Below are positions 1 to 52,645 of a DNA stretch of 64,000 bases, one piece after another; the first letter of the stretch is position 1; each line of letters starts with the position of its first letter. The translations under genes were made by a program, and so were the position numbers. The notes under the pieces were generated by a model. That model searched no databases, had not been told where the DNA came from, and saw only the letters and a list, made by a program, of their open reading frames with translations. The stretch is from an uncultured bacterium (GTDB lineage: Bacteria > CSSED10-310 > CAZUFC01): NCBI GenBank assembly GCA_964619725.1, contig CAZUFC010000008.1:61941-125940 (forward strand). The letters run 5' to 3'.

Positions 1-1890
1 ATCAGGATAACGTTGAACGGCAATCACGTGCATGACAATTTCAGCTCTGGAATTCACTTCAGCAAAAGCAACGGACTGTCTGACATCCATTACATACTCA
101 TGAACAATACGGTCCACGATAACGACGGCCACGGCGTAAGGATATGGACGGGGAACAACACCAATAATTCAGATGCATTCTTCCAGAACGAATATTATTA
201 CAACAATTACGGCGACGGACTTAACTTCAGATTCTCCGACTATTCGACTGATACGCAAGTAATTCTGGATAACGTAACCTGCAGGGCGAACACCGGCGAC
301 GGAATGTACCTGGAATTCAAACGCAACAACGAACCCGTCAATCTGGAATTATACGGGTGTGAGTCTTATGAAAATGATGAGAACGGCATTAAAATGTTTG
401 CGAACAGTTGTTTTGTTTCCACGCTAACCTGTTCGGATTGCTATGTGCATGACAATGGAGAAGCGGGATGCCGGTTTGAAAAAACGGAGGAAGCGATCGT
501 GAGTCACAATACGATCGGCGACAATGACGGCGACGGACTATGGATGAAACTAGGCGGAGAGAATGTATCCCAAATTTTTGACAACCAGATATTCGATAAC
601 GGGGGAATGGGACTTCACGTAGAAAACGGCGATGCGGTATTTTCAAACAACGCTGCAGACCACAACATAAGTCACGGGATAGAATTCAGCGCCGGCCTCG
701 GGGTTTTTCATTACAATGATATCAACTGGAACGGCGGATACGGCATCAGGCTAAACAATACAAGCGACGTGACGGATTTCGATTACAACAATCTTTATCT
801 CAACAACACCTATGAAATGTACAACGATTCTTCTTACGATGTATCGGCCATGTGCTGCTGGTGGGGCGATGCAGCGACCCAGGAGATGAATGATTACGGA
901 TTTCCTCACGATATATCGAGGATATACGACAACTGGGATTCGCCTTCGCGGGGACTGGTGAATTACAGCGGCTGGCAGAGCGGCCCGCTTCCGACGTTGA
1001 CTCCCACAGTAGCGCCTACGGCGACGCCGGCGCCTCCGACATTGACTCCCACCATATCGCCCACCATGCCTTCCTGGACTATAACGCCGACCCTGGTACC
1101 GCCTACGGCCACGCCCGTATGCTGGAACGACGGCGATGTGGACGACAGCGGAGTATTAACGCCCCTGGATGCCTTGATGTCATTCCGTATTTACCTGGGG
1201 GTGATACCCGATCCCACATTCGATGAATTCTGTTCCGCTGACTGTCTGGGAGAAGGCAATGTTACGCCGGCCGATGCTCAATGCATCTTCGAGCATTACC
1301 TGGGAATGGAATGCGATTGCGCTGATCCTGTCGGAAAGGGATTCGGCGATGACTATGCTGCTCTGAATCAACGCAGAGGTTTACTGAGCGGACATGATGA
1401 AGCGTATGAGATTCAGGAACGGAGCGACGGCGAAAGGTTGGATGCGGTCTCCGAGGCTGGGATACAGAAGGTTCCGGACGGGTTTCTTTACGCTGAACTG
1501 GATTATAATTATACGACGGATTTACTCCTGGTCAGCATCAGGATGAGGAACGACGCAGAGCTCGTGCAAGCCTTCGGATTCCAGGTGTCATTCGATGAAA
1601 GCGTTTTAAATTACAAGGAATACCTGTTCGGCGAAATGATTGAGGATTGGGCATTCATGGGATCGAATTACAGCGAGGGCAACCTGACGGTCGGCGCCTT
1701 TGATGCTTTTTCAGGCATAAAGCCGGGATCGGAGGGCGTATTAGCGTTGTTTGTCTTTGAAGTCAGGGGAATCAGCGAAAGGTTTGATTTCGGGATTGAT
1801 ATTCACGGCCTGGCGGACGACATAGGCGAATATGAAACGACTACATATTGGTTGGATGAGAGCTTAAACGATTCAGAAGCGCTGCAATAA
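1..1890 (+). CDS. 5'-truncated secreted protein: right-handed parallel beta-helix repeats, Pro/Thr linker, dockerin-like domain, C-terminal cohesin-like domain
   Basis: Frame open from base 1. Repeated (V/I)xDNxGxG(I/L) beta-helix motifs; PT linker; GDVDDSGVLTPLDA...ADCLGEGNVTPADA dockerin-like duplicated loop (~1120-1320); VQAFGFQVSFDESVLNY...GNLTVGAFD...GSEGVLALFVFEV cohesin-like signature (~1480-1840). Confidence 0.85.
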   Translation: MRITLNGNHVHDNFSSGIHFSKSNGLSDIHYILMNNTVHDNDGHGVRIWTGNNTNNSDAFFQNEYYYNNYGDGLNFRFSDYSTDTQVILDNVTCRANTGDGMYLEFKRNNEPVNLELYGCESYENDENGIKMFANSCFVSTLTCSDCYVHDNGEAGCRFEKTEEAIVSHNTIGDNDGDGLWMKLGGENVSQIFDNQIFDNGGMGLHVENGDAVFSNNAADHNISHGIEFSAGLGVFHYNDINWNGGYGIRLNNTSDVTDFDYNNLYLNNTYEMYNDSSYDVSAMCCWWGDAATQEMNDYGFPHDISRIYDNWDSPSRGLVNYSGWQSGPLPTLTPTVAPTATPAPPTLTPTISPTMPSWTITPTLVPPTATPVCWNDGDVDDSGVLTPLDALMSFRIYLGVIPDPTFDEFCSADCLGEGNVTPADAQCIFEHYLGMECDCADPVGKGFGDDYAALNQRRGLLSGHDEAYEIQERSDGERLDAVSEAGIQKVPDGFLYAELDYNYTTDLLLVSIRMRNDAELVQAFGFQVSFDESVLNYKEYLFGEMIEDWAFMGSNYSEGNLTVGAFDAFSGIKPGSEGVLALFVFEVRGISERFDFGIDIHGLADDIGEYETTTYWLDESLNDSEALQ

Positions 1891-1926
1891 AAACGGCAAT
1901 TTTCACCAATAACAGGGAGCAGCATA

Positions 1927-4659
1927 ATGAAGCGAAAAATATTTCTCGGATTATCAGCGAGCTGCCTCATCCTGTTCAGCAGCGTAGCGTTGTGTTTGGG
2001 ATATAATCCCGCATCTAAAAGCGACCTGGTATGGGTCGCCGATAGTACCGGCTGTACAGGAGAAGCGATACAGATTGCCGTTTCAATGTCCAACGGAGAA
2101 ACGCCGGTCGAGGCGTTCGGATTTGATCTTCATTATTGTACGGATATGCTGGAGTATGTTTCGTGCGAATATGGAGAGCTGACTCTGGCCTGGCCGTATT
2201 TGAACTGCAACCCGGCTGAACCGGGGATTGTACGCGTAGGCGGATTCAGTCCCATGCCGATACCGGCGGGCAGTTCGGGCAGCATTGCGGTCTTGACCTT
2301 TACGGTAACTTGCGGCGCCTGCAACCCAGAGGACGAATGTGAGATATCTCTGACGGATTTGGTCGACGATTTCGAGGGATGGTCGGCACAGTCTGGAACA
2401 TTTACTTATCATTGCGAACCCACGCCGAGTCCTACGATTGTTCCCAGTTCCACGCCTTCCCCTGAACCGACGGTCGTTCCGACTCAGGCGGCGACGTCTA
2501 CGCCGACGGACGACGAAATATGGGTTGAAGAGGTTTCGGGATGCACCGGCGAAATCATTGATATAGCCGTTTCAATCAATAATCCCGATACGGCAGTGGA
2601 AGCGTTCGGTTTCGATTTTAATTTCAATATTCATATGCTGGACTATGAGTCATGCATCAAGGGTGATTTAACTTCGGAATGGAATTACTTTCAGTGCCAT
2701 GAGGACGGACTGGGGCGAATACGCATCGGGGGTTTCTCTGATGATCCCATCCCGGCAGGCAGCGCCGGGACGCTCGTCGTTATTTCTTTCAGGGTTACAT
2801 GTTACTACTGCGAACTGAATGATCAATGCACGCTGAGTTTGACCGGTCTGATTGATGATATGGACGGTTGGACGACGCAGAACGGTCTGTTCACTTATTA
2901 TTGTCCGCCGACGCCCACATATACCGTAACAGCGACAGGTACGCCCACTCTTTCGCCCACCGGCACGCCGACTTTGACCCCGACGAGAACGCCACTATTC
3001 ACTTATACGCCCACAGCGACTTTTACGCCGACGGATAATCTCATCTGGGCGGGCGATTGTTCGGGATGCGCCGGCGAGTCGATCCAACTGGCGGTTTTCC
3101 TGGCGAATCCGGACTCCACGGTCGAAGCTTTCGGTTGCGATCTGCACTATTGTCCGGATATGCTGGAATATGATTCATGTGCGCCGGGCATTCTGACTTT
3201 AGCCTGGCCTTACCTGGAATGCCATGAAACGGAGCCGGGCACAGTCCGCATCGGCGGATTTGCGGACCAGGGCATAGTGCAGGACAGCAGCGGCAGCATT
3301 GCGGTTTTATCTTTTACGGTAACCTGCGACGGCTGCATTGAAGGAGATCAGTGCGAAATATACCTGGATAACCTGGTCGATGATCTCTTTGCCTGGCCGA
3401 CTCAGGATGGGACATTCACTTACTATTGTCCGCCGACTCCCACTCCCACAAGTTCTCCGACTCCCACATGCTCTCCCACCCCGACCAATTCCGCCACGCC
3501 GACAGCTAGCCCGACAGTCACTTCGAGTCCTACGCCTGAACCGACATCCACACCCACTCATACAGGCACGCCGACAACCGACTATTTATGGATTCAGGAC
3601 GCTTCCGGCTGCAGGGATGAGTCGATACAGATCGCCATTTCAATCGAGAATCCCGATTCTCCCCTGAATGCATTCGGCTTCAACCTCAATTACGCCCCGG
3701 ATATGCTCTCTTTCGTCTCCTGCGAGAAAGGAGAACTCTGTTCCGAATGGACCTATATCCAGTGCAATGAAACAGGTCCGGGAATCGTTCGTGCGGGCGG
3801 TTTCGACGATGCCGGCATACCCGCAGGCAATATGGGAAACATATTGATCTTGAATTTTACGGTTAATTGCGAAAGCTGTGAAGAAGGAGACGAATGCCTC
3901 TTATACCTGGACGGCCTGGTGGACGATATTGCACGTTGGACAGCCGAGGACGGAACTTTTACATTAGTCACGGATAACGTGTGGGTGAGCGATGCTTCCG
4001 GGACAGCCGGCGAAGTGATCGAAATACCGGTTATGATTGCTAACCCGTGCACTGCTCCAGATGCCCTGGGATTCGATCTGGACTTTTGTCCTGATATGCT
4101 GGAATACGAAAACTGTCAGAAGGGAGAATTGACTGCGGACTGGCCCTATCTGCTGTGCAGCGAAATAGAGACTGGCCGGCTGCGCGTCGGAGGATTCGGA
4201 GAAACGTCCATCGGGACGGGCAGCCAGGGATCAATAGTTAAACTGTTCTTCACGGTTACATGCGGAGAATGCGTTCCGGGCGATGACTGCATCATGCCCT
4301 TGTCCGGACTGGAAGACGATATCGCCGGGTGGACCACTGCCGAAGGAACGTTTACGTATGTCGAATATACTCCAACAGCTACCGTCTTTCCGACTGTAAC
4401 CAATACCCCCGTTCCCACCGGTACGCCGACTGACACGCCTACGGCCTCGCCGACCGACACGCCTACGGCTTCACCAACCGATACACCGACGTTTTCGCCT
4501 ACGCCGCATTTCACCGCTACTCCCGAATATTCGCCGACTGTTACTTTGACGCCGACTCCTCCAGTCGTGCCGAGCGTTACCGTTACCGGCACAAGCGCGT
4601 TAATCCTCAGCCTTGGCTTGATCCTCTGGCTTGTCGGTCGTAAAAAGCATTCAACGTAA
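1927..4659 (+). CDS. Scaffoldin-like surface protein with five Cys-rich cohesin-like domains, Pro/Thr linkers and an IPTL-CTERM-like anchor
   Basis: Signal peptide; five ~130-aa repeats (I.V.I.NP...V.AFGFDL.Y.PDML.Y..C..G.LT..W...C....G..R.GGF....I..GS.G.I..L.F.V.C); PT linkers; ends VPSVTVTGTSALILSLGLILWLVGRKKHST. Confidence 0.85.
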   Translation: MKRKIFLGLSASCLILFSSVALCLGYNPASKSDLVWVADSTGCTGEAIQIAVSMSNGETPVEAFGFDLHYCTDMLEYVSCEYGELTLAWPYLNCNPAEPGIVRVGGFSPMPIPAGSSGSIAVLTFTVTCGACNPEDECEISLTDLVDDFEGWSAQSGTFTYHCEPTPSPTIVPSSTPSPEPTVVPTQAATSTPTDDEIWVEEVSGCTGEIIDIAVSINNPDTAVEAFGFDFNFNIHMLDYESCIKGDLTSEWNYFQCHEDGLGRIRIGGFSDDPIPAGSAGTLVVISFRVTCYYCELNDQCTLSLTGLIDDMDGWTTQNGLFTYYCPPTPTYTVTATGTPTLSPTGTPTLTPTRTPLFTYTPTATFTPTDNLIWAGDCSGCAGESIQLAVFLANPDSTVEAFGCDLHYCPDMLEYDSCAPGILTLAWPYLECHETEPGTVRIGGFADQGIVQDSSGSIAVLSFTVTCDGCIEGDQCEIYLDNLVDDLFAWPTQDGTFTYYCPPTPTPTSSPTPTCSPTPTNSATPTASPTVTSSPTPEPTSTPTHTGTPTTDYLWIQDASGCRDESIQIAISIENPDSPLNAFGFNLNYAPDMLSFVSCEKGELCSEWTYIQCNETGPGIVRAGGFDDAGIPAGNMGNILILNFTVNCESCEEGDECLLYLDGLVDDIARWTAEDGTFTLVTDNVWVSDASGTAGEVIEIPVMIANPCTAPDALGFDLDFCPDMLEYENCQKGELTADWPYLLCSEIETGRLRVGGFGETSIGTGSQGSIVKLFFTVTCGECVPGDDCIMPLSGLEDDIAGWTTAEGTFTYVEYTPTATVFPTVTNTPVPTGTPTDTPTASPTDTPTASPTDTPTFSPTPHFTATPEYSPTVTLTPTPPVVPSVTVTGTSALILSLGLILWLVGRKKHST

Positions 4660-4703
4660 AGGAGCGTTCCGACGAAATAGACTCTATTCAGCGATTACTC
4701 CTT

Positions 4704-4748
4704 AAGGCCGGCGTCCTGCTGAAACGCCGACCTTGCATGTTTGTGTTT
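4704..4748 (+). terminator. Probable intrinsic terminator between convergent genes
   Basis: AAGGCCGGCGT-N9-ACGCCGACCTT stem (one mismatch) followed by a T-rich run. Confidence 0.5.
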
Positions 4749-4772
4749 AATATTTTTGAATCGAGTCAAGCG

Positions 4773-4794
4773 TAACCTCTGTTTGATCAGTCCC
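4773..4794. repeat. Dispersed 22-bp intergenic repeat, copy 1 (consensus TAACCCCTGTTTGATCAGTCCC)
   Basis: TAACCTCTGTTTGATCAGTCCC; related copies at 33083 and 33115. Confidence 0.7.
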
Positions 4795-4815
4795 CGAATT
4801 TAAACTGGCGATTAA

Positions 4816-6174
4816 TCAGGCCGCATATTTTTTACTTGAAACAGCCGGAAAAATGCCGAGAAGCAGCGCTAACAGAACCTTGCCGTAATCGGACGTAGCG
4901 GGAACGGACGGTTCTGTAGGCGCCGGCGTTGCTGTGGGGGTGACAGCCGGCGTTTGAGTGAATATGGGGGTTGTTCCCGGAGTGGACGTTGCGGTTGATG
5001 TGGAAGTTACTGTTGGGGTTGCCGTGGGGCTATGTGTTGGCGAAATCGTAAATGTCGGGGAGAGCGTCGGGGTCCTGGTTGGGGTGTTCGTTGGCGACTG
5101 CGTGGGAGAGAGTGTGTGAGTCGGCGATGGAGTCGGCGTCAGGGTAGGCGTTAGAGTGGGTGTAGTTGTCGGAGAGCGCGTCGGGGTCAGCGTGGGCGTT
5201 GATGTCGGACTTTGAGTCGGTGTTCCGGAAGGCGTTAATGTGGGCGATAACGTCGGCGTATAGGTGACGGTCAATGTGACGGTCGGACTGACCGTGGGTG
5301 TGGAAGTGGGGGATTTCGTGGGCGTCAGCGTTAAAGTGACGGTAGGGGAAAGATTTATCGTCGCTGTCCTGGTGGGAGTATCCGTCTGCGTCCTGGTTGG
5401 AGTTTTCGTCGGCGTCTTAGTTGGAGTACGCGTCGGCGTAACAGTCGGGGTACGCGTCGGCGGATCAGGATTGCCGTAAGTCAGTCCTCTCGCCTGCCAG
5501 GTGGACATGGGTGGGTATAACCAGTCTACTTCGGCGCCGGTCGCAGGATTTATTTTTAATATGTCGTTGAGCGTGTTGATCGCCCATAAATGGTCGTCGC
5601 CGTAAGCTAATCCCTGTGCGGCATATGTCCCGATCGGAGGGTAGAGCCAACCCATTCCCGCGCCTGTGGAGGGGTTTATTTTCAGTATGTCGTTTGACGA
5701 ATCAATCGCCCACAAATAACCGTCGCCGTGCGTCAGTCCCCTGGCGCTATAAGAATGCATGGGCGGATAGAGCCATCCCAGGCTGTTTCCTGTGTCCGGG
5801 TCTATCTTCAATATCTCGTTTGTTGATGTGATCGCCCACAGATGCCCCTCGCCGTAAGCCAGGCCCTGGGCAGTATATGTGCCTATCGGCGGATATATCC
5901 ATCCCATTCCCGCTCCTGTGTCCGGGTCTATCTTCAAAATGGCGTTCACGGCATCGACCGCCCAGAGATAACCCCCGCCGAACGTTAGTCCGCGCGCCTG
6001 CCACATATCAAAAGGCGGATCGAGCCAGCCTAATTCGCCTCCCGTGTCCGGATCGATTTCCATGATTTCGTTCACTGTATTGATTGCCCACAATGTGTCC
6101 GAAGCCTTCGACGGGCCGGCGCCGACTAACGTGATTAGAAGATTTGCCGAAAAAAACAATACGCTGAATCTCAT
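4816..6174 (-). CDS. Secreted five-repeat beta-propeller-like protein with long Pro/Thr stalk and IPTL-CTERM-like anchor
   Basis: ATG at 6174 preceded by AAGGA; signal peptide; five 42-aa repeats LWA.....I..I(D/N)P.TG....W..PP.....A.GL..G; long PT tract; ends VPATSDYGKVLLALLLGIFPAVSSKKYAA. Confidence 0.85.
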   Translation of the reverse strand: MRFSVLFFSANLLITLVGAGPSKASDTLWAINTVNEIMEIDPDTGGELGWLDPPFDMWQARGLTFGGGYLWAVDAVNAILKIDPDTGAGMGWIYPPIGTYTAQGLAYGEGHLWAITSTNEILKIDPDTGNSLGWLYPPMHSYSARGLTHGDGYLWAIDSSNDILKINPSTGAGMGWLYPPIGTYAAQGLAYGDDHLWAINTLNDILKINPATGAEVDWLYPPMSTWQARGLTYGNPDPPTRTPTVTPTRTPTKTPTKTPTRTQTDTPTRTATINLSPTVTLTLTPTKSPTSTPTVSPTVTLTVTYTPTLSPTLTPSGTPTQSPTSTPTLTPTRSPTTTPTLTPTLTPTPSPTHTLSPTQSPTNTPTRTPTLSPTFTISPTHSPTATPTVTSTSTATSTPGTTPIFTQTPAVTPTATPAPTEPSVPATSDYGKVLLALLLGIFPAVSSKKYAA

Positions 6175-6487
6175 TTCCAAATCCTTCTTTGTTTCCGTTG
6201 ATACTTATCTTCGTTCAAATAAGTATAGCTCTGATTCTGTTTTCTTTTTTACATGAAAAATTCAGGAAAAACAAAAATTTAAGCGAAAACAATCGCTGAC
6301 GGACCATCGTCGCTTCCGGTAATCTGATCCATGCGTAGACATTAATCGATTTTCGCGGTTAAAACGGGCTTTTCTGTTTTAATGGAGGAAAACCCGCATG
6401 TCTGCGTTACGTATGTCCAATACTGAGCATTTTACGGGAATTAAAACGGACGATTTGTTGCAGGGGCCGATTGTAAAAGGTATTCGA

Positions 6488-17450: not shown

Positions 17451-19097
17451 ATGAGAATGGCAGTCCGCTTCGGTTTGATCGCCATAGTTATCATTAAAAT
17501 AGGCGTATCGGCCTTATATCATAAGGATTCATTTGCTATTTCCGATGAAGCCGCTTATCTGCAGACAGCCAGGAGTCTGGCGAGGGAAAATAAACTCAGC
17601 GTGCCGAAATACAGAAACGCCTATCACATGAACATAGGCTCTTCCTACGTCGATCTGGGAAACATAATGATCTCCAAGTATCCTCCGGGATATCCCTTTT
17701 TGCTTTCCCTATTTTATCGAATAGGCGGGCATTCCTGGACAGGCCTGCTGAATTTGACGGCCTCGCTTTTTACGATAGTAATGATTTTTTTACTGGGCAG
17801 GAACATATTCGATTCTTATACGGGATTCCTGGGCGCCGTCGTTTACAGTTTCGGTCCGACGGCGATGTTTTTCGATCAGACTTATATGTCCCATACGCTT
17901 TCAACAGCGCTGACGGCGGCTGCTTTGTTTGCAGCATTAAAAGGCTCTGAACGCCATAAAATATATTTATTTCTGTCCGGTCTTCTGGCCGGTTCGGTTA
18001 TATTCGTCAGATATAGCGATATCATACCTGCTTCAGCAGGTCTGGCGCTCATACTGATTCAACCGAAGACCTCAATGAAAGAACGAATAAAGGGTGCGGT
18101 ATTTTTTGCGGCAGGCTTCGGTCTTGTTTCGGCGTTTTTTCTTTTATTCAATTGCGAAGTCTGGGGAGACCCTTTCAGGACAGGCTATTTTTATACTCAG
18201 GAACAATCAGCTTTCTTGCTCAGCTTGTTCCACCGTCGCATTTTGTTTGTGCTGAAAACGGTTTTCGTTCAGGGTATCCCCTATATTTCGCTTTTCGCCG
18301 CGCCGGCCATACTGATTCTGGCATTCAAAAACAGTCGGTATGCAATCTTTTATACCGTTTGGATTCTTCCTCTTCTGTTATTGTATTCGTGCTACTACTG
18401 GAAGACGCCCAGTTATTCCGTTTATTCCCGTTTCCTGATGCCGGTTCTTCCCGGCGTAGCTTTGTTGAGCGTTTATTTTATTTTCACCGTATGCAAAAAA
18501 TTAAAGATTTCACTGGGCTGGACCGGCGCGCTTTTGATTTTTCTCTATCCGGCCATCGCTTTCAGAGGTTTTCATGAATCCATAACGGAGTATAACAAGC
18601 GTTCCGCAAACGATCTGATAGAATGGGTCGAATCGAACGTGCAGAAAAATTCCCTGCTCTACTCGGATACCAACACTTTGACTGTTTTATCTTATTTCTT
18701 TGACGAGAGTTATGATTTTCGCGATTCGGCCGAATTGAGGATGCTTTTCCATAAGAAAAAAGAGAAAATAACACGTGCGACACGGAAAACAATAAAAGAA
18801 GAAAAATTGCCCCCGGTATTGGAGGCCAAAAAACAGGAAACCGGCATCGCTGTGCGGCGGCATTTCAATGCGGCTAAGCTGAAAGCAGAGATAAAGAACA
18901 GGATGACCTATCTTATTATCCGTGAAACGAAAGACGAGAGTATAATCGAAGATATAAGTTCGATTTGCCGTATTGAAATTTCAGCGAAAAATGAACGTGA
19001 AGGTTGGTCCGTGTACAGATTGTACCCTCAAAGAGTGCGTGCTCTGAACGAACCCGCTGTTTCGCCGTTATTTGAGGAAAACAGTGAGAATAACTGA
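17451..19097 (+). CDS. GT-C-fold membrane glycosyltransferase (ArnT/PMT-like)
   Basis: TM1 followed by SDEAAY acidic motif, KYPPGYP, many TM segments, SRFLMP motif, soluble C-terminal domain. Confidence 0.82.
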   Translation: MRMAVRFGLIAIVIIKIGVSALYHKDSFAISDEAAYLQTARSLARENKLSVPKYRNAYHMNIGSSYVDLGNIMISKYPPGYPFLLSLFYRIGGHSWTGLLNLTASLFTIVMIFLLGRNIFDSYTGFLGAVVYSFGPTAMFFDQTYMSHTLSTALTAAALFAALKGSERHKIYLFLSGLLAGSVIFVRYSDIIPASAGLALILIQPKTSMKERIKGAVFFAAGFGLVSAFFLLFNCEVWGDPFRTGYFYTQEQSAFLLSLFHRRILFVLKTVFVQGIPYISLFAAPAILILAFKNSRYAIFYTVWILPLLLLYSCYYWKTPSYSVYSRFLMPVLPGVALLSVYFIFTVCKKLKISLGWTGALLIFLYPAIAFRGFHESITEYNKRSANDLIEWVESNVQKNSLLYSDTNTLTVLSYFFDESYDFRDSAELRMLFHKKKEKITRATRKTIKEEKLPPVLEAKKQETGIAVRRHFNAAKLKAEIKNRMTYLIIRETKDESIIEDISSICRIEISAKNEREGWSVYRLYPQRVRALNEPAVSPLFEENSENN

Positions 19098-19280
19098 TTG
19101 ACTTTTTACGTCGCCGCTGACTCAGTTGAACCAGACTCGAAATTTGACAATCGGCGGTCATTTCGATTTGATAGGGAATGAGAAATCGGCCGTATCGGGC
19201 AACCGGTTACACTTTGCCGGAAATTTAAACGATCTGTTAATGGTCAAGGGAAAGCAATGAAATGAACATGGAGGTGTTCC

Positions 19281-21770
19281 ATGCAGGAGAGAAAATCTGG
19301 CGAGTTCAGAACGATAAATTTTGCTTTGATGTTTTTTGCAGCCGCTTTTTTGATCGGAGCGGGAGTTTTGATTGAAGGGGCGGAGGCTGATGTTGATTTT
19401 GAATTCGTTGAGGATTCGTTGTATTCGGGAAGCATTTATGATTTATGGGTGGAAGATGATCTGCTTTACATGGCTGCGAAAAAGGCAGTGTGGATTTATG
19501 ATGTTTCGACGCCGGAGACGCCGGTTTTGCTTTCTACCGTGGATACGCCGGGGCTGGCCAACGGCGTGCATTACAAGGATGGTTACCTATATGTGGGCGA
19601 CGTATACGGATTCCAGATCATTGACGTTTCGGACCCGTCTTCGCCTGTGACCGTCGGTTATTATAAAGCGGTGGGAGATGGCTATCCTGAAAGGGTCCGG
19701 GTAAGAGACGGTTATGCCTATGTGGCGGCTTATGATGCAGGATTGCAGGTTTTCGATGTTTCCGATCCGACGATGCCGGCGCTGGTAGGCAGCGGAGATA
19801 CGCCGGCCTACAGTTGGCATGTGGCCGTCAGCGGAAACCTGGCTTTCCTCAGCGACATGTTTTCTCTTGAGACGTTCGACATAAGCGATCCGACGCAACC
19901 CGTTCATCTTTCCTCTTATTCAGCGGTTTTCGGATTGGAGGTCGAGGTGGAGGGGAATTTAGTATATCTCGCTTACATCGACGGGATGATCGTTCTGGAT
20001 ATGTCGGACCCTGAAAACCCGGTTGAATATGGGTTTCCCGGAATAACCGGCAGCGGCAGCGGAGAATCCATTTCGCTGGAAAACGACCGCGTGTATGTCG
20101 GTCACGGCGCGTACGTGGACATCTTTGACGTTTCTGATCCCGGAGAACCGGAACGTATCGGTTACTACTACACTCATTCGCATCCCAGGGCCATTCAGGC
20201 GGTCGGCGATCTGCTGTATATTGTGGAAGATGAAGCGGGATTTGAAATCGTGGATGTTTCAGACCCGTCTGATCCTGTGCGGATAACTTATGTGAATCCT
20301 TTCATCCGGGGGGAAAGAGAGGATGTGCTGTACCATCAGGGGCTCGTTTACTTGGCCGACGGCGTTCGCGGCCTGAGGATATACGATGTGAGCGCTGATC
20401 CGGCGCAACCCCAGGAGATATCTTCCGTGGGTCTGCCGGGATATGTCAGGAATTTAAGGCTATTTGAAGATCGATTGGTTGTTGGGGCTGATTCGAGGAT
20501 TCATGTGCTGGATATCCAGGACCCGGCAACCCCGGCGCTGCTCAGCACAATCAGAACAACCGGGCATCCCTGGCAGGCCTGGCTGGAAGGAAACACCCTG
20601 ACGGCAGTTGATCTTTACGGCATACATACTTTTTCGCTGGAGAATCCTGAGAAGCCCGAACTCCAGAACAGTTACTTCACTTCACATGAAGGCGATCCTT
20701 ACGATCTCGTTAAAAGAGGCGATTATCTCTACGTTGCAGCGGGGCACGGCGGAATGATGATATTCGACGTCTCCTCTCCCCTGGACCCCACCAGGCTGGC
20801 GCGCATCCCCGATGATAATTCCAGAAGCTACATCACGTTGAAATTAATAGCCAATACCGCTCTGGCGCTGAAAAGCTCAGGAGGCATAGACATTTACGAC
20901 ATAGTAAATCCCGCAGCGCCGGCACTCGTCAGGGAATTCGAACTGGAAGGCTCATTCAACAGAATCCTCGTTCAGGACGATAAAGCTTTTCTCAGCAATG
21001 GAGTCAGGGGAATAATAGTCCTGGACGTCTCAACTCCACGTAATCCCGTAATTATCGGATCATACGACACAACAGGATACAATGAAGGGACAGCAATAAA
21101 CGGTCAATACGTCTATATCGCCGACTATTACTCCTTCGCCGTCTATCGGATGCTCAATAAACAGAGCGATGACGTCCCTCCCGAAACCGTCATCGAATAT
21201 CCCGCCCAGGGTGATTTAATCAAAGGCAAATTTGCCGACATTTTCGGTCGCGCCTGGGATGACCAGTCCGGTTTGAAAAAAATACATATCAGTCCCGATA
21301 ACGGACTCTCCTGGGAAACGGCCCAGGGACTCGATCCCTGGTCATACCGGTTTACTCCGGCCGATTACGGAAACATCACCGTCCTCGCCAAAGCCGAAGA
21401 TCAGAAAGGCAACGTCGAAGACCCCCCGTCTTCCGTTGACTTCGACTTCATACCCGCAAGGCCCCAGATACTCTCCGCCGGCTTTCTCAATACCAGAATT
21501 AATTATGACGGCGGGCGTCTGGGCCTCGCCGCCTGGATTACAGACCCCCAATCAAACTTCAATATCAAAAAAGTCGAATTGCTCTATGACGGCATTCCTA
21601 CGGGCGTCACGCTCGATCCCCTTTACAACAAAAGCGAAGATTTCCAAATTTACTGCCTGGATCGCCAAATTGACGCTTCTGTTCCGGAAGCCGACTATGA
21701 AATTCAAATCGAGGTTGAAGATGTTTACGGGTTGAAAAGTCGATTATGGCCTTACTTGTCTGTTGAATGA
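19281..21770 (+). CDS. Secreted LVIVD-repeat beta-propeller protein with Ig-like C-terminal domains
   Basis: Signal peptide; many repeats of YLYV....GL.I(F/Y)DVSDP..P; DDVPPETVIEYP...GRAWDDQSG...SPDNGLSW Ig-like domain; GGAGG RBS. Confidence 0.88.
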   Translation: MQERKSGEFRTINFALMFFAAAFLIGAGVLIEGAEADVDFEFVEDSLYSGSIYDLWVEDDLLYMAAKKAVWIYDVSTPETPVLLSTVDTPGLANGVHYKDGYLYVGDVYGFQIIDVSDPSSPVTVGYYKAVGDGYPERVRVRDGYAYVAAYDAGLQVFDVSDPTMPALVGSGDTPAYSWHVAVSGNLAFLSDMFSLETFDISDPTQPVHLSSYSAVFGLEVEVEGNLVYLAYIDGMIVLDMSDPENPVEYGFPGITGSGSGESISLENDRVYVGHGAYVDIFDVSDPGEPERIGYYYTHSHPRAIQAVGDLLYIVEDEAGFEIVDVSDPSDPVRITYVNPFIRGEREDVLYHQGLVYLADGVRGLRIYDVSADPAQPQEISSVGLPGYVRNLRLFEDRLVVGADSRIHVLDIQDPATPALLSTIRTTGHPWQAWLEGNTLTAVDLYGIHTFSLENPEKPELQNSYFTSHEGDPYDLVKRGDYLYVAAGHGGMMIFDVSSPLDPTRLARIPDDNSRSYITLKLIANTALALKSSGGIDIYDIVNPAAPALVREFELEGSFNRILVQDDKAFLSNGVRGIIVLDVSTPRNPVIIGSYDTTGYNEGTAINGQYVYIADYYSFAVYRMLNKQSDDVPPETVIEYPAQGDLIKGKFADIFGRAWDDQSGLKKIHISPDNGLSWETAQGLDPWSYRFTPADYGNITVLAKAEDQKGNVEDPPSSVDFDFIPARPQILSAGFLNTRINYDGGRLGLAAWITDPQSNFNIKKVELLYDGIPTGVTLDPLYNKSEDFQIYCLDRQIDASVPEADYEIQIEVEDVYGLKSRLWPYLSVE

Positions 21771-21922
21771 TATAAGTGTGAAATGACGCTTGGAAAATAT
21801 ACATCTGAATTGATCAAAATATAATTGGGATAAAATGTTTTCTTGACAACTGCGTTTTGATTACTTAAAACTTAAGTGGCGAATGACGTCAACAAAAATA
21901 TTTTATTAACAGGAGGCTTCGA

Positions 21923-23071
21923 ATGATGAAAAAAGCAGGGCGGTTGATTTTAATGACCATAGTCCTGGCGCTGACTGCAGCGAATATGGCTTACGGCGAT
22001 GATCCCATGGACGTAAGCATTTGCGATATTCAGCAGTATAATGGAGTGAGTGAGGGAGACCGCGTTCGCGTAACGGGAGTGTGCACGGCTGAAACGGGTC
22101 GTTACGGTATGAGCGTAACGATCATTTCTGAAGAGGGCGGCGGTCCCTGGTGCAGCATGTATGTATATGTAGTGGACCAGGACCTGATCGCTTTTCAGGG
22201 TGAGTGCGTGACGGTGGTTGGTGAAGTATCGGAGTATTACGGAAAGACGGAGATATACGTAGGCAGTGATGAACCTGAGAGGCCGACGGTAACGACGGAA
22301 TGTTTTCCGATACCCGAACCGATGTATGATTTGACGGCCAATTTCACGGGTGCGATTGCTGAAAAATATGAAAGCTGTCTAGTCAGGGCCGGTTGCATAA
22401 CGGTTACGGAAGAAGCCAACGAAGGCAATTTCTGGAATATGAAGATCGATGACGGCAGCGGTCCATGCCTGGCTCAGTTTTCACAATATTGGGACAACCC
22501 GCCGGAAGGAACCGAATACTGTTCGATGTCGGGCATTTTGGATTATTCCTGGGATCAGTTCAAGATAAGGCCCAGGAATGAAGAGCAGGACCTGGATACG
22601 ACGGCACACGCCGAATGCGGGTATTGCGGAGGAACCACGCCGACGCCGACGCCGACTTCTACCGGTTCGACACCCACTTTCACCCCGACCGGCGATACGA
22701 CCCCGATACCTTGCGAGCCGGACCTCGTGTTATCACTGAACAAAGTGAGTCCCAACTGCTTTACGGCCGGCGATCAGTTTTCTTTGTTCGCCACCATCAC
22801 TAATGGAGACTGTCCGGCATACACGGTTGATTTCTATTGCGTGCTTGACGTTATCGGAATGTATTTCTGGGCCCCGACCTGGACGGAGACGTTTGAAGGA
22901 ATGCCCGTGGTTTTACCATCATATGATTCCACTGATGTCCCCCTTCTGGACTTTAGCTGGCCGAGCAACGCCGGAAGCTTCAGCGGGCTCTTTTTCTATT
23001 GCGCGATCTTTCAGGAGGGCACATTTGAATTTCTGGACGATCTGGAGATCAAGGAATTCTGTTACGAGTAA
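21923..23071 (+). CDS. Secreted protein with tandem OB-fold-like domains, Pro/Thr linker and C-terminal beta-sandwich-like domain
   Basis: Signal peptide; SICDIQ...EGDRVRVTGVCTA and GECVTVVGEVSEYYGKTEI / EKYESCLV / GILDYSWDQFKIRPR resemble OB folds of ExeM/YhcR-type nucleases; no catalytic domain recognised; AGGAGG RBS. Confidence 0.75.
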   Translation: MMKKAGRLILMTIVLALTAANMAYGDDPMDVSICDIQQYNGVSEGDRVRVTGVCTAETGRYGMSVTIISEEGGGPWCSMYVYVVDQDLIAFQGECVTVVGEVSEYYGKTEIYVGSDEPERPTVTTECFPIPEPMYDLTANFTGAIAEKYESCLVRAGCITVTEEANEGNFWNMKIDDGSGPCLAQFSQYWDNPPEGTEYCSMSGILDYSWDQFKIRPRNEEQDLDTTAHAECGYCGGTTPTPTPTSTGSTPTFTPTGDTTPIPCEPDLVLSLNKVSPNCFTAGDQFSLFATITNGDCPAYTVDFYCVLDVIGMYFWAPTWTETFEGMPVVLPSYDSTDVPLLDFSWPSNAGSFSGLFFYCAIFQEGTFEFLDDLEIKEFCYE

Positions 23072-23142
23072 ACGATAACTTCCGCCGGCAGAGCGCCGAC
23101 GATGCTGATTACGATCTCGACAACAAGTGTATAATTGACCGG

Positions 23143-23197
23143 CTGAATCCAATCAACGGCCGGGGGGAATTTTCCGAAAGCCGTTGATTGGATTCAG
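23143..23197. repeat. Perfect 18-bp inverted repeat (long hairpin)
   Basis: CTGAATCCAATCAACGGC...GCCGTTGATTGGATTCAG, with inner CGGGGG/TTTCCG pairing. Confidence 0.8.
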
Positions 23198-23249
23198 ACG
23201 GCGACAAAATTTTTAATTGAGGTCAGACGTGTATCAGACAAGGATTTCG

Positions 23250-23278
23250 TTGACATAGACTTTTTTGCTGCTTATCAT
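23250..23278 (+). promoter_or_regulatory. Sigma70-type promoter, probably producing a leaderless mRNA
   Basis: TTGACA-17 nt-TATCAT; in-frame ATG at 23286, 7 nt after the -10 box, with no SD. Confidence 0.7.
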
Positions 23279-23285
23279 CCTTTTC

Positions 23286-26279
23286 ATGTATTCGAAGTTA
23301 CATAAAACATTTTGCATCGGAGCCGTACTGATTCTGAGCGTCGTTTTGTTTTTGTCGGTTACCGAAGCAGCGTCCGTAATTGCTGTGACGGCTTTTTTGC
23401 TTGCGGCAAACGTTTATTTATATTCACGCGGGCAGTACGGTTCGTCCGTTGATATGATTTACTTGTTTTTCGTCACAGTCGTTTCCGCTTTCTACCTGCA
23501 AAGCGCTGTTATGACTGAGTTTCCCGGTGAATCCGTCATTTCAAAACCCAATTTAAATGCTTTTTTCTGGCTCATCCATCTTGGCTTGATCTTCGTTTTG
23601 CCCGTTGCCCTGCGAAAAAGGACCATTTCAAAAACTGATATTTCCGTAGTCATTTTTGTTTTTTTTCTGGGTCCTTTCTACACACAGATCATCGATAAAT
23701 CTCCTTACGGGCTTATGGTCCCGGCGGCGCTTGTTATTGAACGCCTCATGTCTACAGATATTAAGGAGGACAGAAGGTATTCGTCGTCAATTTTCGCTTC
23801 TGCCGGATTTCTATTTGTTTTATGGCTGTTTATTTCTGGATTGTTCGCGGATGATACAGGCGGAATGTTCCGCGTTTTTTCTCATTATGCAGCCCCTCTG
23901 GCGGCCTTGCCCCTGTTACGGCGAACTAAAAACGGGAAACGGAACACCTGGCTTTGGGGTCTGTTTTTTCTTTTTATTGTTACACTGCTGATTTCCTTCA
24001 ACAAGTTTTTTTATAACTGGTTTGCTCTTCATCTGAGGAATTTCTGGCATATCAAATTATGGACCGCAGCGGTTCATCCCAATGCACTGGCTTCTTTTCT
24101 GATAGCGTTGTTACCCTTTTTATGCGCATTCATCACGTTTAATTTTAAGAAAAAATGGAGGATAATCTCCTATTTTCTTCTCGGTTTTATCATGTTGCTT
24201 CTGGTTTTTCTGACAAGGAGCCGCGGCGGAGTAATCGCTCTATCGGGAATGTTGATCGCTGCGCCGCTGTTACTGAAGAAACCAAAGTCCAGAGCCTTCC
24301 AGATCATTTTCACTATAGCGCTGCTGATTCCGGTACTCTTTTTTTCCGTTTACTCCGTGGGTTCTTTGCGATTGGAAAGCGGCGCCGGTCAGCAGTTTGA
24401 AGGCATAAGGGACAGGATAATTTTATGGAAGCCGATCTTAAGGGCGATAGGCGATATACCTGCGTTCGGACTGGGAATGGGAAATCACCACAGGCTGTCG
24501 CAATGGTTTCAATGGCCGGATTTAGGTTACCGGGAACTTTATGGGACCTGGATCGGATGGGACATGCTGGGTCGTCACAGTCACCAGGTATTTCTGGAGA
24601 TACTATTGATAGGGGGCGTCCCGGCATTGATTCTTTTTTTGCTTGTGACGTTTTATGCTTTGTTTAAGGGGCGCCGGGGGATACATAACAAAGATTTTAT
24701 ATATCGAACAATGGGAAAGGCTGCTTTACTGAGTCTTCTGTTTCAGGGATTGTTCGATTTCACCTGGTATTATCCCTGTATTATTCTACTTTTCTGGACT
24801 GCGGCGGCTTCGGCTGCAGGGGAGTTCGATCAGGCAGCCTTACAGCCGGCGTTTTTACGCCTCATGACCAGGCGGCTTCAGAAGATTTTTCTCCTTATTT
24901 TCTTCTTTACTGCGGTTCTGGTTCCCATAGTCAACGGCCTGTTTTCCAACTTGCAAGAGGTCTGGGATCAAGATGCGCCGCTGAAAGTCTGGAGTATGCT
25001 CATGCCGTGGAATCCTGCGCCCGAGCGGCTGCTGGGAGAACGTAAACTGGAGGAGAAACAGTCGAAAGAAGCCCTGGATCATTTCAGAAAAGCCGTCGAA
25101 CGTGATCCCTCGACTTTGAACGATCATGCAGTGCTCGGTTGGCTGATGATCCGGCTCCGGGAGGATCAAAAGGGATTCGAGTATTTGATGATGCGCGAAC
25201 GAAAAGACCCATTGGGTACAGTGTGCGATCCTTACATAGACCTGGCGGCATTCGTTTCGCAACAGGATGCCCAGAACAAGGACGACCTGCTGCATTATCT
25301 GGAAAAATCCTTCATGGTGGGAGCGGGATTGAAAGAGAATTTCTTCTGGGATAATGAGAATGAAAGAGAAAGATGGTGTTTTTCATCGCTTTTCCTGGGA
25401 GACTATCTGGCCGAAAAGTATGGGATATTGGATTTGCCGAAGGTTCCCCAGGGACTGTCCGTCGAATGCAGCCTGGAACTGCCCGAAGTGCTGAGCCGGT
25501 TGCAGTTGAATCTAAAGCAGGAACAGAATAGGGAAGTTTACAATGATTACCTGCGTATTAAAACTGCAGAATTGCTTTGGGAAAGCGGATACAGGAAAAA
25601 ATGTCTGGAAATATTGCAGAAAGGCGGTATGAGTCTGAAAGAGCTTCATGGATTCAGGGACGTTCCGATCGATACTATCGAGGAGGATTCCCCGGAACAA
25701 TATCGAATAGAGGGAACGAGACTACTGGCCTTGGGTAAACCTGAAGAGGCGTTGCCTTTTTTGGAAAGAGCGTGGGAAAACGGATTGGATGATTTGAGGA
25801 TTTCGGCGGGACTGGCTGAAGCTTATAAGGCGACGGGGAATATTGATGAAGCTGTAAAGCATTATTATCGCATCATCGAGCAACAACCGGAAAACGAAAC
25901 GATAAGAAATAATCTGGCTCTTTTGCTGCTGCATCAGCGCCGCTATAATAAGGCCGAGCATCAGTTCAACGAAGCGCTGAAGATTAATCCGCGGTCGTAC
26001 AGCGCTCTGTATAATCTGGGAACTCTTTATCTGGCGACTAACCAGCCAGAGAAGGCTGCGGAAATGTTCGATCGTTGCCTTAAGCTGGACCCGTCTTCTC
26101 CCGCGGCTTTGTTCAATCGGGCTCGCGCTGCAGACAAAATGAACCGAAGTAACGAAGCGCTGGTTTTTTATCGACATTTTCTTGCAAGCGCCAAACCTGA
26201 TACGTACAATGAACTTCGCGGGATTGCCGTTCGCCGTATCAATGCGTTGCAAAAAGCGGCAGAAGGGAATTCCGAATGA
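23286..26279 (+). CDS. O-antigen ligase-like (Wzy_C) GT-C membrane protein with C-terminal TPR repeats
   Basis: Polytopic; HPNALA, LTRSRGG, DRIILW, FGLGMG, RHSHQVFLE motifs; TPRs (NNLALLL...ALYNLGTLY). Confidence 0.85.
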   Translation: MYSKLHKTFCIGAVLILSVVLFLSVTEAASVIAVTAFLLAANVYLYSRGQYGSSVDMIYLFFVTVVSAFYLQSAVMTEFPGESVISKPNLNAFFWLIHLGLIFVLPVALRKRTISKTDISVVIFVFFLGPFYTQIIDKSPYGLMVPAALVIERLMSTDIKEDRRYSSSIFASAGFLFVLWLFISGLFADDTGGMFRVFSHYAAPLAALPLLRRTKNGKRNTWLWGLFFLFIVTLLISFNKFFYNWFALHLRNFWHIKLWTAAVHPNALASFLIALLPFLCAFITFNFKKKWRIISYFLLGFIMLLLVFLTRSRGGVIALSGMLIAAPLLLKKPKSRAFQIIFTIALLIPVLFFSVYSVGSLRLESGAGQQFEGIRDRIILWKPILRAIGDIPAFGLGMGNHHRLSQWFQWPDLGYRELYGTWIGWDMLGRHSHQVFLEILLIGGVPALILFLLVTFYALFKGRRGIHNKDFIYRTMGKAALLSLLFQGLFDFTWYYPCIILLFWTAAASAAGEFDQAALQPAFLRLMTRRLQKIFLLIFFFTAVLVPIVNGLFSNLQEVWDQDAPLKVWSMLMPWNPAPERLLGERKLEEKQSKEALDHFRKAVERDPSTLNDHAVLGWLMIRLREDQKGFEYLMMRERKDPLGTVCDPYIDLAAFVSQQDAQNKDDLLHYLEKSFMVGAGLKENFFWDNENERERWCFSSLFLGDYLAEKYGILDLPKVPQGLSVECSLELPEVLSRLQLNLKQEQNREVYNDYLRIKTAELLWESGYRKKCLEILQKGGMSLKELHGFRDVPIDTIEEDSPEQYRIEGTRLLALGKPEEALPFLERAWENGLDDLRISAGLAEAYKATGNIDEAVKHYYRIIEQQPENETIRNNLALLLLHQRRYNKAEHQFNEALKINPRSYSALYNLGTLYLATNQPEKAAEMFDRCLKLDPSSPAALFNRARAADKMNRSNEALVFYRHFLASAKPDTYNELRGIAVRRINALQKAAEGNSE

Positions 26280-26370
26280 TCCCGGGGATGGATTCCAAGA
26301 ATGCTGTTTATATTTCGCCTGCGTTAAAAATACATGCCGGCAAGAAGGCTTTTATAGGTTTTTAGGAGAA

Positions 26371-51400: not shown

Positions 51401-52645
51401 TACGTCGTGTCAACCAATTCACTCGCTGTTCTGACTCTGGAATCGACCACGTTATACGTCTGTGCGGAAACGCAGGAAGATGCCGACGATATTGCGCCGA
51501 CTTTGCCGCAGTTCTGCGAAGGTTACACGTTCGATCTCTATCCCAGAATTCAGACCGTGAGCATACTGGACGTCAATGAGAATCCCTGCAGCGTGTTCTA
51601 TCCCGGCGAGACCGCAAAAATACGCATGAGGACGGAGAATCCTCATCCCTTCTACGGCTACGACGTGACCTATTCATTGAAGATCGATACGGACGGGAAT
51701 CCCTCAGAACCTGAATACGACAGCCACCTGGTCGACGAAGACTGGGTCACCACGCTGGAACACAATGCCGACGTTTATCACACCTGGGATTGGACCGTCC
51801 CCTCAGGCTCCTCCAACGTTCACCTTACTGTTGAAGCGCATGAAACAGCTAATTACGAAAACTGTTACGATTGTCCCGGATATAACTGGGGCTTCAGCGT
51901 CGGCGGCGGCATCACGGGTTACGTGAGAGAAGCCGGCACGCTCGATCCTATCGAAGGAGCTTCCGTTACGGCACAGGGCGGTTATTCCGATCCGGACGGC
52001 TCAGACTCCAACGGTTACTACGAAATCCATCACCTGCCCAACGGTACCTACAGCGTTACGGCAGGCGCCGCAGGATTTGTGCCCGCAACCATCTACGGCT
52101 GCGTCGTCGAAGGAAACATACTCACCAATCAGGACTTCGAACTCCTTACTCCTACTATAACGCCTACTCCCACAGTCACCAACACGCCGACCGTCACCTC
52201 CACCCCGACCATCACCCCCACTCCGACGCTCAGTTCCACGCCAACCATCACCCCGACGCCCACGCTCTCTTCTACTCCCACTCAATCGCCTACTGCAACC
52301 TTGTCGCCCACCGCTACTCTCAGTCCTACCGTTACGCTCTCACCCACCGTTACCCTTTCACCTACCGTTACAATCTCTCCCACAAGAACACCGACACGCA
52401 CGCCTACTCAATCTCCCACTGTTACGCATTCGCCCACAACCTCGCCGACCGCTACACTGACCCCTTCCCCCTCCTTCACCGATACGCCGACTTTGACGCC
52501 CACATCGCCCACTCCTACACTTACTCCCGTTCCCACTATTCCGCCGATTCCTGCTCTCGGACGCTTTGGAACGATCACGCTCCTGCTGCTTATCGGCTTC
52601 TCCATTATGGGCTGGAGGAAATTGAATACGAAACATACGAGATAA
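33473..52645 (+). CDS. Giant (6390 aa) surface protein: nine 8-bladed beta-propeller-like domains, two copies of a CARDB/Ig/FN3/carboxypeptidase-regulatory-like block, Pro/Thr linkers, IPTL-CTERM-like anchor
   Basis: Signal peptide; ~465-aa repeats starting at 33692, 35078, 36473, 37859, 39260, 40655, 42053, 43451, 44834, each with eight DG.GG....W-type motifs; duplicated block at 46364 and 49454; ends [32 protein letters not shown]. Confidence 0.92.

Follow-up and report, generated by a model that had tools for sequence, protein, structure and literature searches.

What would a bacterium do with cellulosome-style parts, cohesins and dockerins, when they are carried by proteins other than cellulases? 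This question is raised by the first 4,659 nucleotides (nt) of a 64,000-nt stretch of DNA from an uncultured bacterium (contig CAZUFC010000008.1 of assembly GCA_964619725.1; the whole stretch is referred to as the window), in which gene 1, coding for a giant beta-helix protein with a dockerin, is followed by gene 2, coding for a scaffoldin-like protein with five cohesins and a C-terminal sorting tail. Our analysis indicates that the two genes probably form a display cassette, in which rods would be anchored indirectly to the cell surface, up to five per scaffoldin, and suggests that cellulosome-style parts have been reused for surface-protein display rather than cellulose digestion. The strongest evidence for this reading is the way in which the genes are laid out, the recurrence of that arrangement in two families, and the finding that the C-terminal labels can replace one another. 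The source genome (G000; 9.17 Mb in 344 contigs, 90.9% complete, 6.5% contamination) holds the window at G000:C8:61941-125940, and is one of a set of 14 genomes of the phylum used throughout. The features of the two genes, in window coordinates, are:

1..1890 (+), gene 1, 3' end (629 amino acids, aa) of a 2,050-aa secreted protein, G000:C8:57678-63830
1..975 (+), gene 1, remainder of its third beta-helix module, right-handed (Pfam Beta_helix, E 2e-18)
985..1119 (+), Pro/Thr-rich linker of gene 1 (sequence)
1120..1332 (+), dockerin, type I-like, with six near-invariant Cys (profile, structure model)
1480..1851 (+), in-cis cohesin, Cys-free, of a long-branch subtype, 49 aa behind the dockerin (profile, structure model)
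1927..4659 (+), gene 2, scaffoldin-like protein of 910 aa with five cohesins, ending in a sorting tail (intact open reading frame, ORF)
1927..1998 (+), probable signal peptide of gene 2 (by eye from the sequence)
2023..2415 (+), cohesin 1, 8 Cys (Pfam Cohesin, 28.3 bits)
2512..2904 (+), cohesin 2, 7 Cys (Pfam Cohesin, 24.1 bits)
3037..3429 (+), cohesin 3, 10 Cys (Pfam Cohesin, 25.4 bits)
3580..3969 (+), cohesin 4, 7 Cys (Pfam Cohesin, 27.7 bits)
3973..4362 (+), cohesin 5, 7 Cys, immediately behind cohesin 4 (22.3 bits, under the cut-off)
2416-2511, 2905-3036, 3430-3579 (+), Pro/Thr linkers of gene 2 (sequence composition)
4366..4566 (+), Pro/Thr stalk of gene 2 (sequence composition)
4567..4656 (+), sorting tail in three parts: [IV]P[AST]xxxxG motif, then a hydrophobic helix and a basic end (221 such tails in the source genome)

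Domain structure of the two genes

Gene 2 starts 36 nt past the stop of gene 1. The five cohesin repeats that the original prediction had read from the DNA alone are borne out by Pfam Cohesin (PF00963), which matches the whole protein with an E-value of 3.2e-30 and four of the five single repeats at or over its cut-off of 24.1 bits; the repeats are 130-131 aa long and 51-60% identical to the first. Its Pro/Thr linkers (Pro and Thr make up 53-68%) and its membrane-spanning, basic C-terminus, composed of a motif, a hydrophobic stretch and basic residues, were likewise found as described, and a Pfam domain scan of gene 2 gave no match to an S-layer homology (SLH) domain. By homology the repeats of gene 2 are genuine cohesins; the structural model was made for the cis cohesin of gene 1.

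The description of gene 1 stands as far as the dockerin is concerned, and missed both that the window holds only the last 629 of 2,050 residues and that a Cys-free cohesin follows in cis. The full protein consists of three beta-helix modules of ~500-580 aa, a Pro/Thr linker, the dockerin and the cohesin, and has no membrane tail. Upstream lies a paralogue of 1,779 aa whose C-terminal part is laid out in the same way; it overlaps the start of gene 1 by 8 nt and is apparently devoid of a signal peptide at its called ORF start. Taken alone the gene 1 dockerin reaches 16.6 bits in Pfam (cut-off 22.9, E 0.009), while its paralogues exceed the cut-off; it is upheld by its internal duplication (E 3e-5), by the alignment of its model with 2ccl_B over 62 residues (Z 10.3, root-mean-square deviation (rmsd) 1.2), and by a profile of 24 paralogous dockerins that matches solved dockerins (best E 4.6e-4). 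Loop 1 conforms to the Ca-binding pattern; in loop 2, position 3 is occupied by Leu.

The cis cohesin is also under the Pfam Cohesin cut-off by itself (18.7 bits); a profile of 53 cohesins of the source genome matches solved cohesins (best E 1.4e-7). Its model aligns with the type I cohesin 5nrk_A over 126 residues (Z 15.6, rmsd 2.3) and with the Archaeoglobus fulgidus cohesin 2xdh (Z 15.3); ranks 1-19 of the structure matches are all cohesin entries (Z 15.6-10.9), the best non-cohesin match has Z 10.5, the carbohydrate-binding module (CBM) value is 9.7, and pilin and CBM rows stay at or below 10.5. A generic immunoglobulin (Ig) or CBM fold, the alternative named at the outset, is therefore rejected for the cohesins on the profile matches to solved cohesins and the lead of cohesin entries in the structure ranking. 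A model of the dockerin-linker-cohesin tandem (predicted local distance difference test (pLDDT) 83.8, predicted TM-score (pTM) 0.77) has a disordered linker and ~200 of 244 residues ordered; because its pTM is near the ordered fraction of the chain, the model suggests that dockerin and cis cohesin lie on each other. A complex predicted for cohesin 1, the dockerin of gene 1 and two Ca scored 0.30 against a mark of 0.32, in a series whose controls did not fold, and speaks neither for nor against binding.

Positions 1-6400 of the window are identical in one public contig, possibly the source of this DNA, and the junction between gene 1 and gene 2 is spanned, without any change, by a contig from another run of that study; a misassembly at this point is not indicated by the comparison.

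Repetition of the layout and exchange of C-terminal labels

Iterated profiles recognize in the source genome a family, A, of 56 cohesins, spread over 34 ORFs, and 25 dockerins, each in an ORF of its own. In 20 of these 25 a cohesin stands behind the dockerin, across a linker of 20-52 aa; the C86/C122 cargo has the order cohesin-dockerin-cohesin. Eight family-A genes have two to five cohesins and no dockerin. All 12 cohesin-only genes are tailed (two by eye), and for 11 of them the gene immediately before is a dockerin gene without a tail, at a distance of -4 to 156 nt. With C265 dropped (it ends at the contig end) and the upstream C8 paralogue counted as in-cassette, 12 of 19 tail-less dockerin genes belong to a scaffoldin cassette, versus none of five self-tailed ones (one of these by eye; Fisher p 0.019, for paralogues that are not independent).

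The layout recurs in a second family, B, whose X module, dockerin-like domain and cohesin end 8 beta-helix proteins of 2,881-3,500 aa (Pfam scores are 13.8 bits for the dockerin and 33 bits for the scaffoldin cohesin). A family-B cohesin gene follows within 16-20 nt at four of the eight loci; two others stop 116 nt from a contig end and two have no downstream cohesin gene. L028:2522-14494 and L031:902-14966 are examples of family-B cassettes. Each family has its own cohesins, and no mixed cassette was seen. Within family A, the cohesins of C20, C64, C97, C5, C276 and C277 form one clade (100/99), and the dockerins of the loci matching this clade group at 90/92, with the bootstrap unsettled. 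At the first recognition position of loop 2 these dockerins mostly carry Ile, and the subtype of the window carries Pro; dockerins of the relatives mostly have Ala-Gly at the recognition positions of both loops, numbered as in canonical dockerins.

To judge from their sequences, the C-terminal labels (dockerin, tail or another domain) are interchangeable among homologues. The paralogue at C2:8763 has the same beta-helix modules as gene 1, with a C-terminal tail replacing the dockerin. The scaffoldins of the relatives end in a tail (G001, G002), in a 111-aa domain described below (G004, G005, G007, G008), in a dockerin (G003) or in an X-dockerin (G009). The 36 homologues, in the source genome, of the relatives' dockerin-bearing peptidases carry the tail (8), another C-terminal domain (23) or neither (5), and in no case a dockerin.

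Two variants were also observed: a family-A cargo-dockerin-cohesin gene split into several frames (L007:3016-6884, G000:C12:40012-44016), and two PKD/NHL/FlgD proteins of 3,000 aa whose N-terminal dockerin lacks Cys and is of a third kind (L026:1327-10365, L027:2308-11322).

Sorting tail and export

A rule for the tail ([IV]P[ASTVLC], a hydrophobic helix and a basic end) matches 221 of the 5,811 ORFs of the source genome versus 3 of 3,934 truncation controls; a few of the 221 look false, and 147 have Gly at position 8. Together with a single exosortase-family gene (TIGR04178, 65.7 versus 23 bits), these tails agree with the exosortase type first assigned to gene 2. The exosortase reaches 76.6 bits against XrtH (TIGR04177; cut-off 86), and the exosortase signature is over the cut-off in all 14 phylum genomes. 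The gene 2 tail has no match to IPTL-CTERM (TIGR04174), for which the best tail scored 13.3 versus 20.5 bits and none of 15 tails matched in a second scan, and it reaches none of the curated CTERM models. Sortase has no match in the source genome, at 90.9% completeness, and is present in 2 of the 14 genomes. Because the source genome has six Omp85 matches, seven secretins and one GspE over the cut-off, it is that of a diderm with a plausible export route.

Another ~111-aa C-terminal domain was found on 217 proteins of the source genome (at the C-terminus in 210); examples are window 22739-23068 (+) and L038:6601-6930 (-). It is never found on a protein that has the tail, a family-A cohesin or a family-A dockerin, forms the end of the multi-cohesin scaffoldins in family f3 of the phylum, has no meaningful match in Pfam or NCBIfam and meets only hypothetical clusters in the Atlas (recognition 1878, weak); it is a candidate for a second sorting or anchoring signal.

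Cargo

The modules of gene 1 are ~42% identical to one another. The model of module 2 (pLDDT 90.1, pTM 0.85) is a long, capped beta-helix of the right-handed type that includes an Ig domain. Its nearest folds are those of AlgE4 and AlgG, which are alginate epimerases, of a PL6 lyase and of tailspikes; these matches are generic (TM-score ~0.2-0.4, 8-15% identity). Across 17 modules the conserved charged residues, including invariant Asp, Arg and Glu in both caps, lie in the caps, with none in the central coils, and a Tyr is the sole conserved charged or aromatic residue at module positions 151-434. Because the conserved charged residues are in the caps rather than the central coils, the pattern favors a structural or adhesive rod, with catalysis still possible.

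Of the 25 family-A dockerin proteins of the source genome, 21 were scanned whole: 13 have Beta_helix matches, and the other domains are FG-GAP, CARDB, LamG, one CBM_4_9 and one PLD-like. None of the 21 has a glycoside hydrolase (GH) over the cut-off, the sole near-match being a 43-residue GH43 (28.4 versus 32.2 bits). The census thus yields no ordinary GH enzymes as dockerin cargo, as had been proposed; the idea of a cargo that is not carbohydrate-active holds in this respect, but is weakened by a fold that is common to lyases and epimerases.

Paired cysteines

The original prediction put the number of conserved Cys per cohesin at about 5-8; the repeats of gene 2 have 8, 7, 10, 7 and 7, and five positions are Cys in all of them. 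The Cys-bearing dockerin was correctly recognized. In 119 cohesins Cys positions co-vary in pairs (phi 0.93 for 97-100, 0.84 for 39-106, 0.79 for 11-131 and 0.60 for 48-62), with cross-pair values up to 0.59 among sequences that are kin and not independent. The cis cohesins of the window subtype are long-branch and Cys-poor, while the scaffoldin cohesins are conserved. The pairing of the Cys is thus supported, but the disulfides thought likely at first are more doubtful: DsbA, DsbB and VKOR have no match in 9 of the 10 cohesin-bearing phylum genomes, the source genome among them; of these 10, G003 alone has DsbA and VKOR. A test for even Cys numbers was mixed (51 of 80 proteins with the C-terminal domain, p 0.009; 35 of 76 tail proteins; 899 of 1,801 in a cytoplasmic proxy). 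An unrecognized oxidase, chemical oxidation or metal binding are possible explanations for the paired positions. A Cys-rich secreted proteome (2.1% and 1.7% versus 1.3%) was noted for the source genome and its phylum.

Distribution in the phylum

The dockerin profile matches in 12 of the 14 genomes (two weakly) and the cohesin profile in 10. Genomes of the family f3 have 22-70 dockerins each, against 9-30 cohesins, and in 6 of 6 the dockerins are the more numerous; they also stand mostly at the protein end without a cis cohesin, and for both reasons need a partner in trans. In G005, 19 of the 22 dockerin matches were scanned, and 10 of these proteins are peptidases (five C25, two S8, M14, M12A and C13); an amidase was also found there. 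Peptidases account for 6 of 17 scanned proteins (of 102, chosen by region) in G003/G008; dockerin-fused GHs over the cut-off were absent from these 19 and 17 proteins. The peptidase set of f3 would amount to a planctosome-like protease complex. G003:C25 has the layout of the window, a beta-helix cargo-dockerin-cohesin gene followed by a three-cohesin gene. CBM3 and GH9 are found in none of the 14 genomes (GH5 was not searched genome-wide), and GH48 in none by a search whose controls likewise had no match. At loci of relatives (L038-L049 of G005, L074-L076 of G003) we observed dockerins on peptidases of the gingipain-like C25, subtilase, astacin, M14 and C13 types, and a five-cohesin scaffoldin.

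A strict peptide-pattern scan of contigs, which does not cover the full range of the family, gave four dockerin loci. Two of these, as well as the sole named scaffoldin homologue with a taxon label, are labeled CSSED10-310; as the closest named homologues they are indirectly in line with the lineage guessed from protein style. Another locus is labeled Pseudomonadota, and its genome is without a family-A cohesin. A search of representative proteins gave 707 at E<=1e-10, many of them from the source genome or its phylum, with the Cys signature in 111 of the best 150. A Cys-flanked dockerin was seen on a trypsin-like protein in a 3.6-kb contig whose record is labeled Pseudomonadota (L037).

Interpretation of the locus

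From the observed domains, folds, gene layout and distribution over genome and phylum, we infer binding, processing, location and function as follows. The product of gene 2 would be exported and held at the inner membrane by its tail, which the single exosortase is predicted to process, and type II secretion would then probably carry it to the surface, as the analogy with MYXO-CTERM and GlyGly-CTERM proteins suggests; the available text of PMC11980579 has comparable tails reaching the surface by this route in myxobacteria and Vibrio. There its Pro/Thr stalk would hold out five cohesins as sockets. The rods, giant beta-helix proteins that lack an anchor, would come from gene 1 and the paralogue upstream of it; their dockerins may dock on these sockets in a Ca-dependent manner, up to five rods per anchor, while the cis cohesin would either cover the dockerin until the scaffoldin displaces it or take a further rod. 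The likely role in the source genome is adhesion or the building of a surface coat; relatives appear to use the kit mainly for peptidases.

Several observations weigh against this display cassette. The main complication is the cis cohesin, which was overlooked in the original prediction and because of which the picture of a plug in a scaffold is less simple: it may be a latch, a closed module or a chain builder. A cohesin of its own follows the dockerin in 20 of 25 family-A ORFs, the pTM of 0.77 with ~200 of 244 residues ordered is read as the two domains packing together, and a dockerin so occupied may be unavailable. Seven tail-less dockerin genes have no adjoining scaffoldin (C12, which is frameshifted, C18, C25, C101, C116, and the near-duplicates C276 and C277). 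Loop 2 of the gene 1 dockerin deviates from the Ca-binding pattern, exosortase and tails are below the XrtH and IPTL-CTERM cut-offs, and the source genome has no DsbA, DsbB or VKOR match to oxidize the paired Cys.

If the cis cohesin makes a closed module, the dockerin would stay on it as a folding or secretion unit and the scaffoldin would bind other dockerins or nothing. This is unlikely: the frequency of the tandem (20 of 25 ORFs), its linkers of 20-52 aa, long enough for fold-back, the pTM of its model (0.77), and five self-tailed proteins that carry it without a scaffoldin all fit, yet the closed module leaves unexplained why 11 of 12 scaffoldin genes lie behind tail-less dockerin genes and none behind the five self-tailed ones, and is at odds with cis cohesins that are long-branch and Cys-poor while scaffoldin cohesins are conserved, and with f3 dockerins that mostly do without a cis cohesin. 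Rather unlikely too, and compatible with the display cassette, is a self-extending polymer, in which the cohesin of one rod takes the dockerin of the next and the scaffoldin nucleates chains or a branched coat. Each cargo does have one plug and one socket, two cargo genes stand in tandem upstream of gene 2, the C86/C122 cargo has a cohesin on either side of its dockerin, and in the available text of PMC4611034 the cohesin of Ruminococcus bromii Amy4 binds its own dockerin and chains are proposed; across a flexible 49-aa linker, however, intramolecular pairing should outcompete chaining.

The other two alternatives concern the rods and their location. That the rods are polysaccharide lyases, epimerases or binders, forming a carbohydrate-active assembly for mat exopolymers, is improbable: the nearest folds (AlgE4, AlgG, PL6 lyase, tailspikes), the invariant Asp, Arg and Glu of both caps and the CBM_4_9 or LamG domains of other cargo are in its favor, but the fold matches are generic in score and identity, the module positions 151-434 offer a single conserved Tyr among charged or aromatic residues, and GHs over the cut-off are missing from the 21 of 25 cargo proteins scanned. 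An envelope scaffold in the periplasm or bound to the inner membrane, instead of surface display, is very improbable. The organism is a diderm in which the tail alone would reach only the inner membrane, and the export of 200-kDa rods is a supposition of ours; against this stand the several secretin loci and GspE-like ATPases of the source genome, the surface-bound tails of myxobacteria and Vibrio just cited, and the digestive-type peptidase cargo of the relatives, which fits a role outside.

Beyond the display cassette itself, we tentatively propose, as a possibility of which we are doubtful, a phylum-wide code for surface assembly. It would combine three mutually replaceable labels, one of which each of hundreds of secreted proteins would bear (exosortase tail, 111-aa domain, Cys-clamped dockerin), two orthogonal cohesin-dockerin families with subtypes that give each cassette its own plug, and a dockerin shielded by cohesin until scaffoldin displacement or chain growth; it would build a coat of beta-helix rods here and a protease complex of 20-70 components in f3, with Cys pairs for which no known disulfide enzyme was found.

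Relation to known systems

Judged by its domains, the system resembles an anchored scaffoldin system and is not a cellulosome, because no dockerin-GH was found among the proteins scanned, gene 2 has no SLH match, and the source genome has neither CBM3 nor sortase. The comparisons below are with the available text of the papers cited. Clostridial and ruminococcal cellulosomes (PMC11557425) share with it type I-like folds and tandem cohesins on Pro/Thr linkers, and anchored, adaptor-like and X-dockerin scaffoldins also occur across the phylum; unlike them, this phylum shows no dockerin-fused GH among the proteins scanned, and no CBM3 or GH9 in 14 of 14 genomes, and the source genome, with no sortase found, is that of a diderm and has an exosortase-type tail, Cys-paired modules and dedicated cargo-scaffoldin pairs. 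In the RefSeq survey of PMC11557425, cellulosomes are almost confined to four Gram-positive genera. The amylosome proteins Amy4 and Sca2 of R. bromii (PMC4611034) offer a cargo with cohesin and dockerin, for which self-recognition was demonstrated, and a separate tail-anchored cohesin protein. Amy4, however, is an amylase with the cohesin before the dockerin and Sca2 has one cohesin and a sortase motif, whereas here the order is dockerin, then cohesin, five cohesins sit on the anchor and there are 20 copies of the tandem.

Predicted non-cellulolytic complexes of diderms with peptidase cargo, the planctosome of Nemodlikiaceae (PMC6461901) and the complex of Ca. Stygibacter in Cloacimonadota (PMC8542988), are nearest to family f3; they differ in their proposed lamin-tail or type IX secretion system-like (T9SS-like) C-terminal anchors, in having far fewer components, and in that neither exosortase tail nor beta-helix cassettes appear in these texts. 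The multi-cohesin proteins of anaerobic methanotrophic archaea (ANME; PMC9012536, PMC5244752) are also non-cellulosomal, with up to five cohesins and a suggested role in adhesion, and the A. fulgidus cohesin (PDB 2xdh) is among the best structure matches to the cis cohesin; the ANME proteins are archaeal, with ABC substrate-binding and S-layer cargo, and no link to exosortase tails is drawn in these texts. Cag_2037/Cag_2038 of Chlorobium chlorochromatii (bioRxiv 10.64898/2026.03.19.712371) are likewise adjacent co-expressed genes of a diderm with an alginate-epimerase-like domain and predicted cohesin-dockerin surface display, though as described they are one pair with a single type II cohesin on the cargo and type I secretion, without a multi-cohesin scaffoldin or sorting tail. 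The dockerin-repeat giants of Omnitrophota (bioRxiv 10.1101/2023.11.21.568195) are of a different design. As in exosortase H/IPTL-CTERM (TIGR04177, TIGR04174), a short exosortase with the family signature is matched by many tails that begin with Ile/Val-Pro and have Gly at position 8; the scores of the enzyme (76.6 versus 86 bits) and of the tails (<20.5 bits) point to a lineage-specific relative that does not score as a member.

Non-cellulolytic cohesin-dockerin systems are thus already published for other lineages. What appears to be new is that an exosortase-type anchor, modules with paired Cys, a tandem of dockerin then cohesin and dedicated cassettes are combined, with expansion across the phylum; a literature search for CSSED10-310 and for exosortase with cohesin and dockerin found no description of it, in a coverage that left most subscription papers and all supplements outside. 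CSSED10-310 are, by prediction, Gram-negative heterotrophs in PMC8248873, where the announcement text, as available, makes no mention of cohesins. The role of cohesins and dockerins outside cellulosomes is described as an open question (PMC5244752, PMC9012536), for which ~15 cargo-scaffoldin pairs in one genome, in two families and with subtypes that differ in recognition residues, offer a test set. The 22-70 dockerins of the relatives match cellulolytic clostridia in number, with peptidase and adhesin-like cargo instead. If binding is true, exosortase sorting would be joined to scaffoldin assembly in a diderm, and new orthogonal, possibly disulfide-stabilized pairs would be at hand for designer complexes.

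Other features of the window

A scan for promoters and terminators gave chance-level counts (11 versus 7.6 and 4 versus 8.7). Convergent with gene 2, a gene at 4816-6180 (-) codes for a 454-aa repeat protein, a probable beta-propeller, with a long Pro/Thr stalk, the same tail as gene 2 and a weak IPTL-CTERM match. A 6,390-aa tail-bearing protein with CARDB and carboxypeptidase-regulatory-like domains is encoded at 33473-52645 (+); many giant tail-bearing proteins like it, of up to 12,076 aa, are present in the source genome. At 59889-63998 (-) lies a gene for a collagen-like repeat protein, whose 5' end is beyond the called ORF. Genes for PMT_2 and TMEM260-like glycosyltransferases and an O-antigen-ligase-TPR gene occupy 17451-28860 (+); as a speculation, these glycosyltransferases could glycosylate the Pro/Thr linkers.

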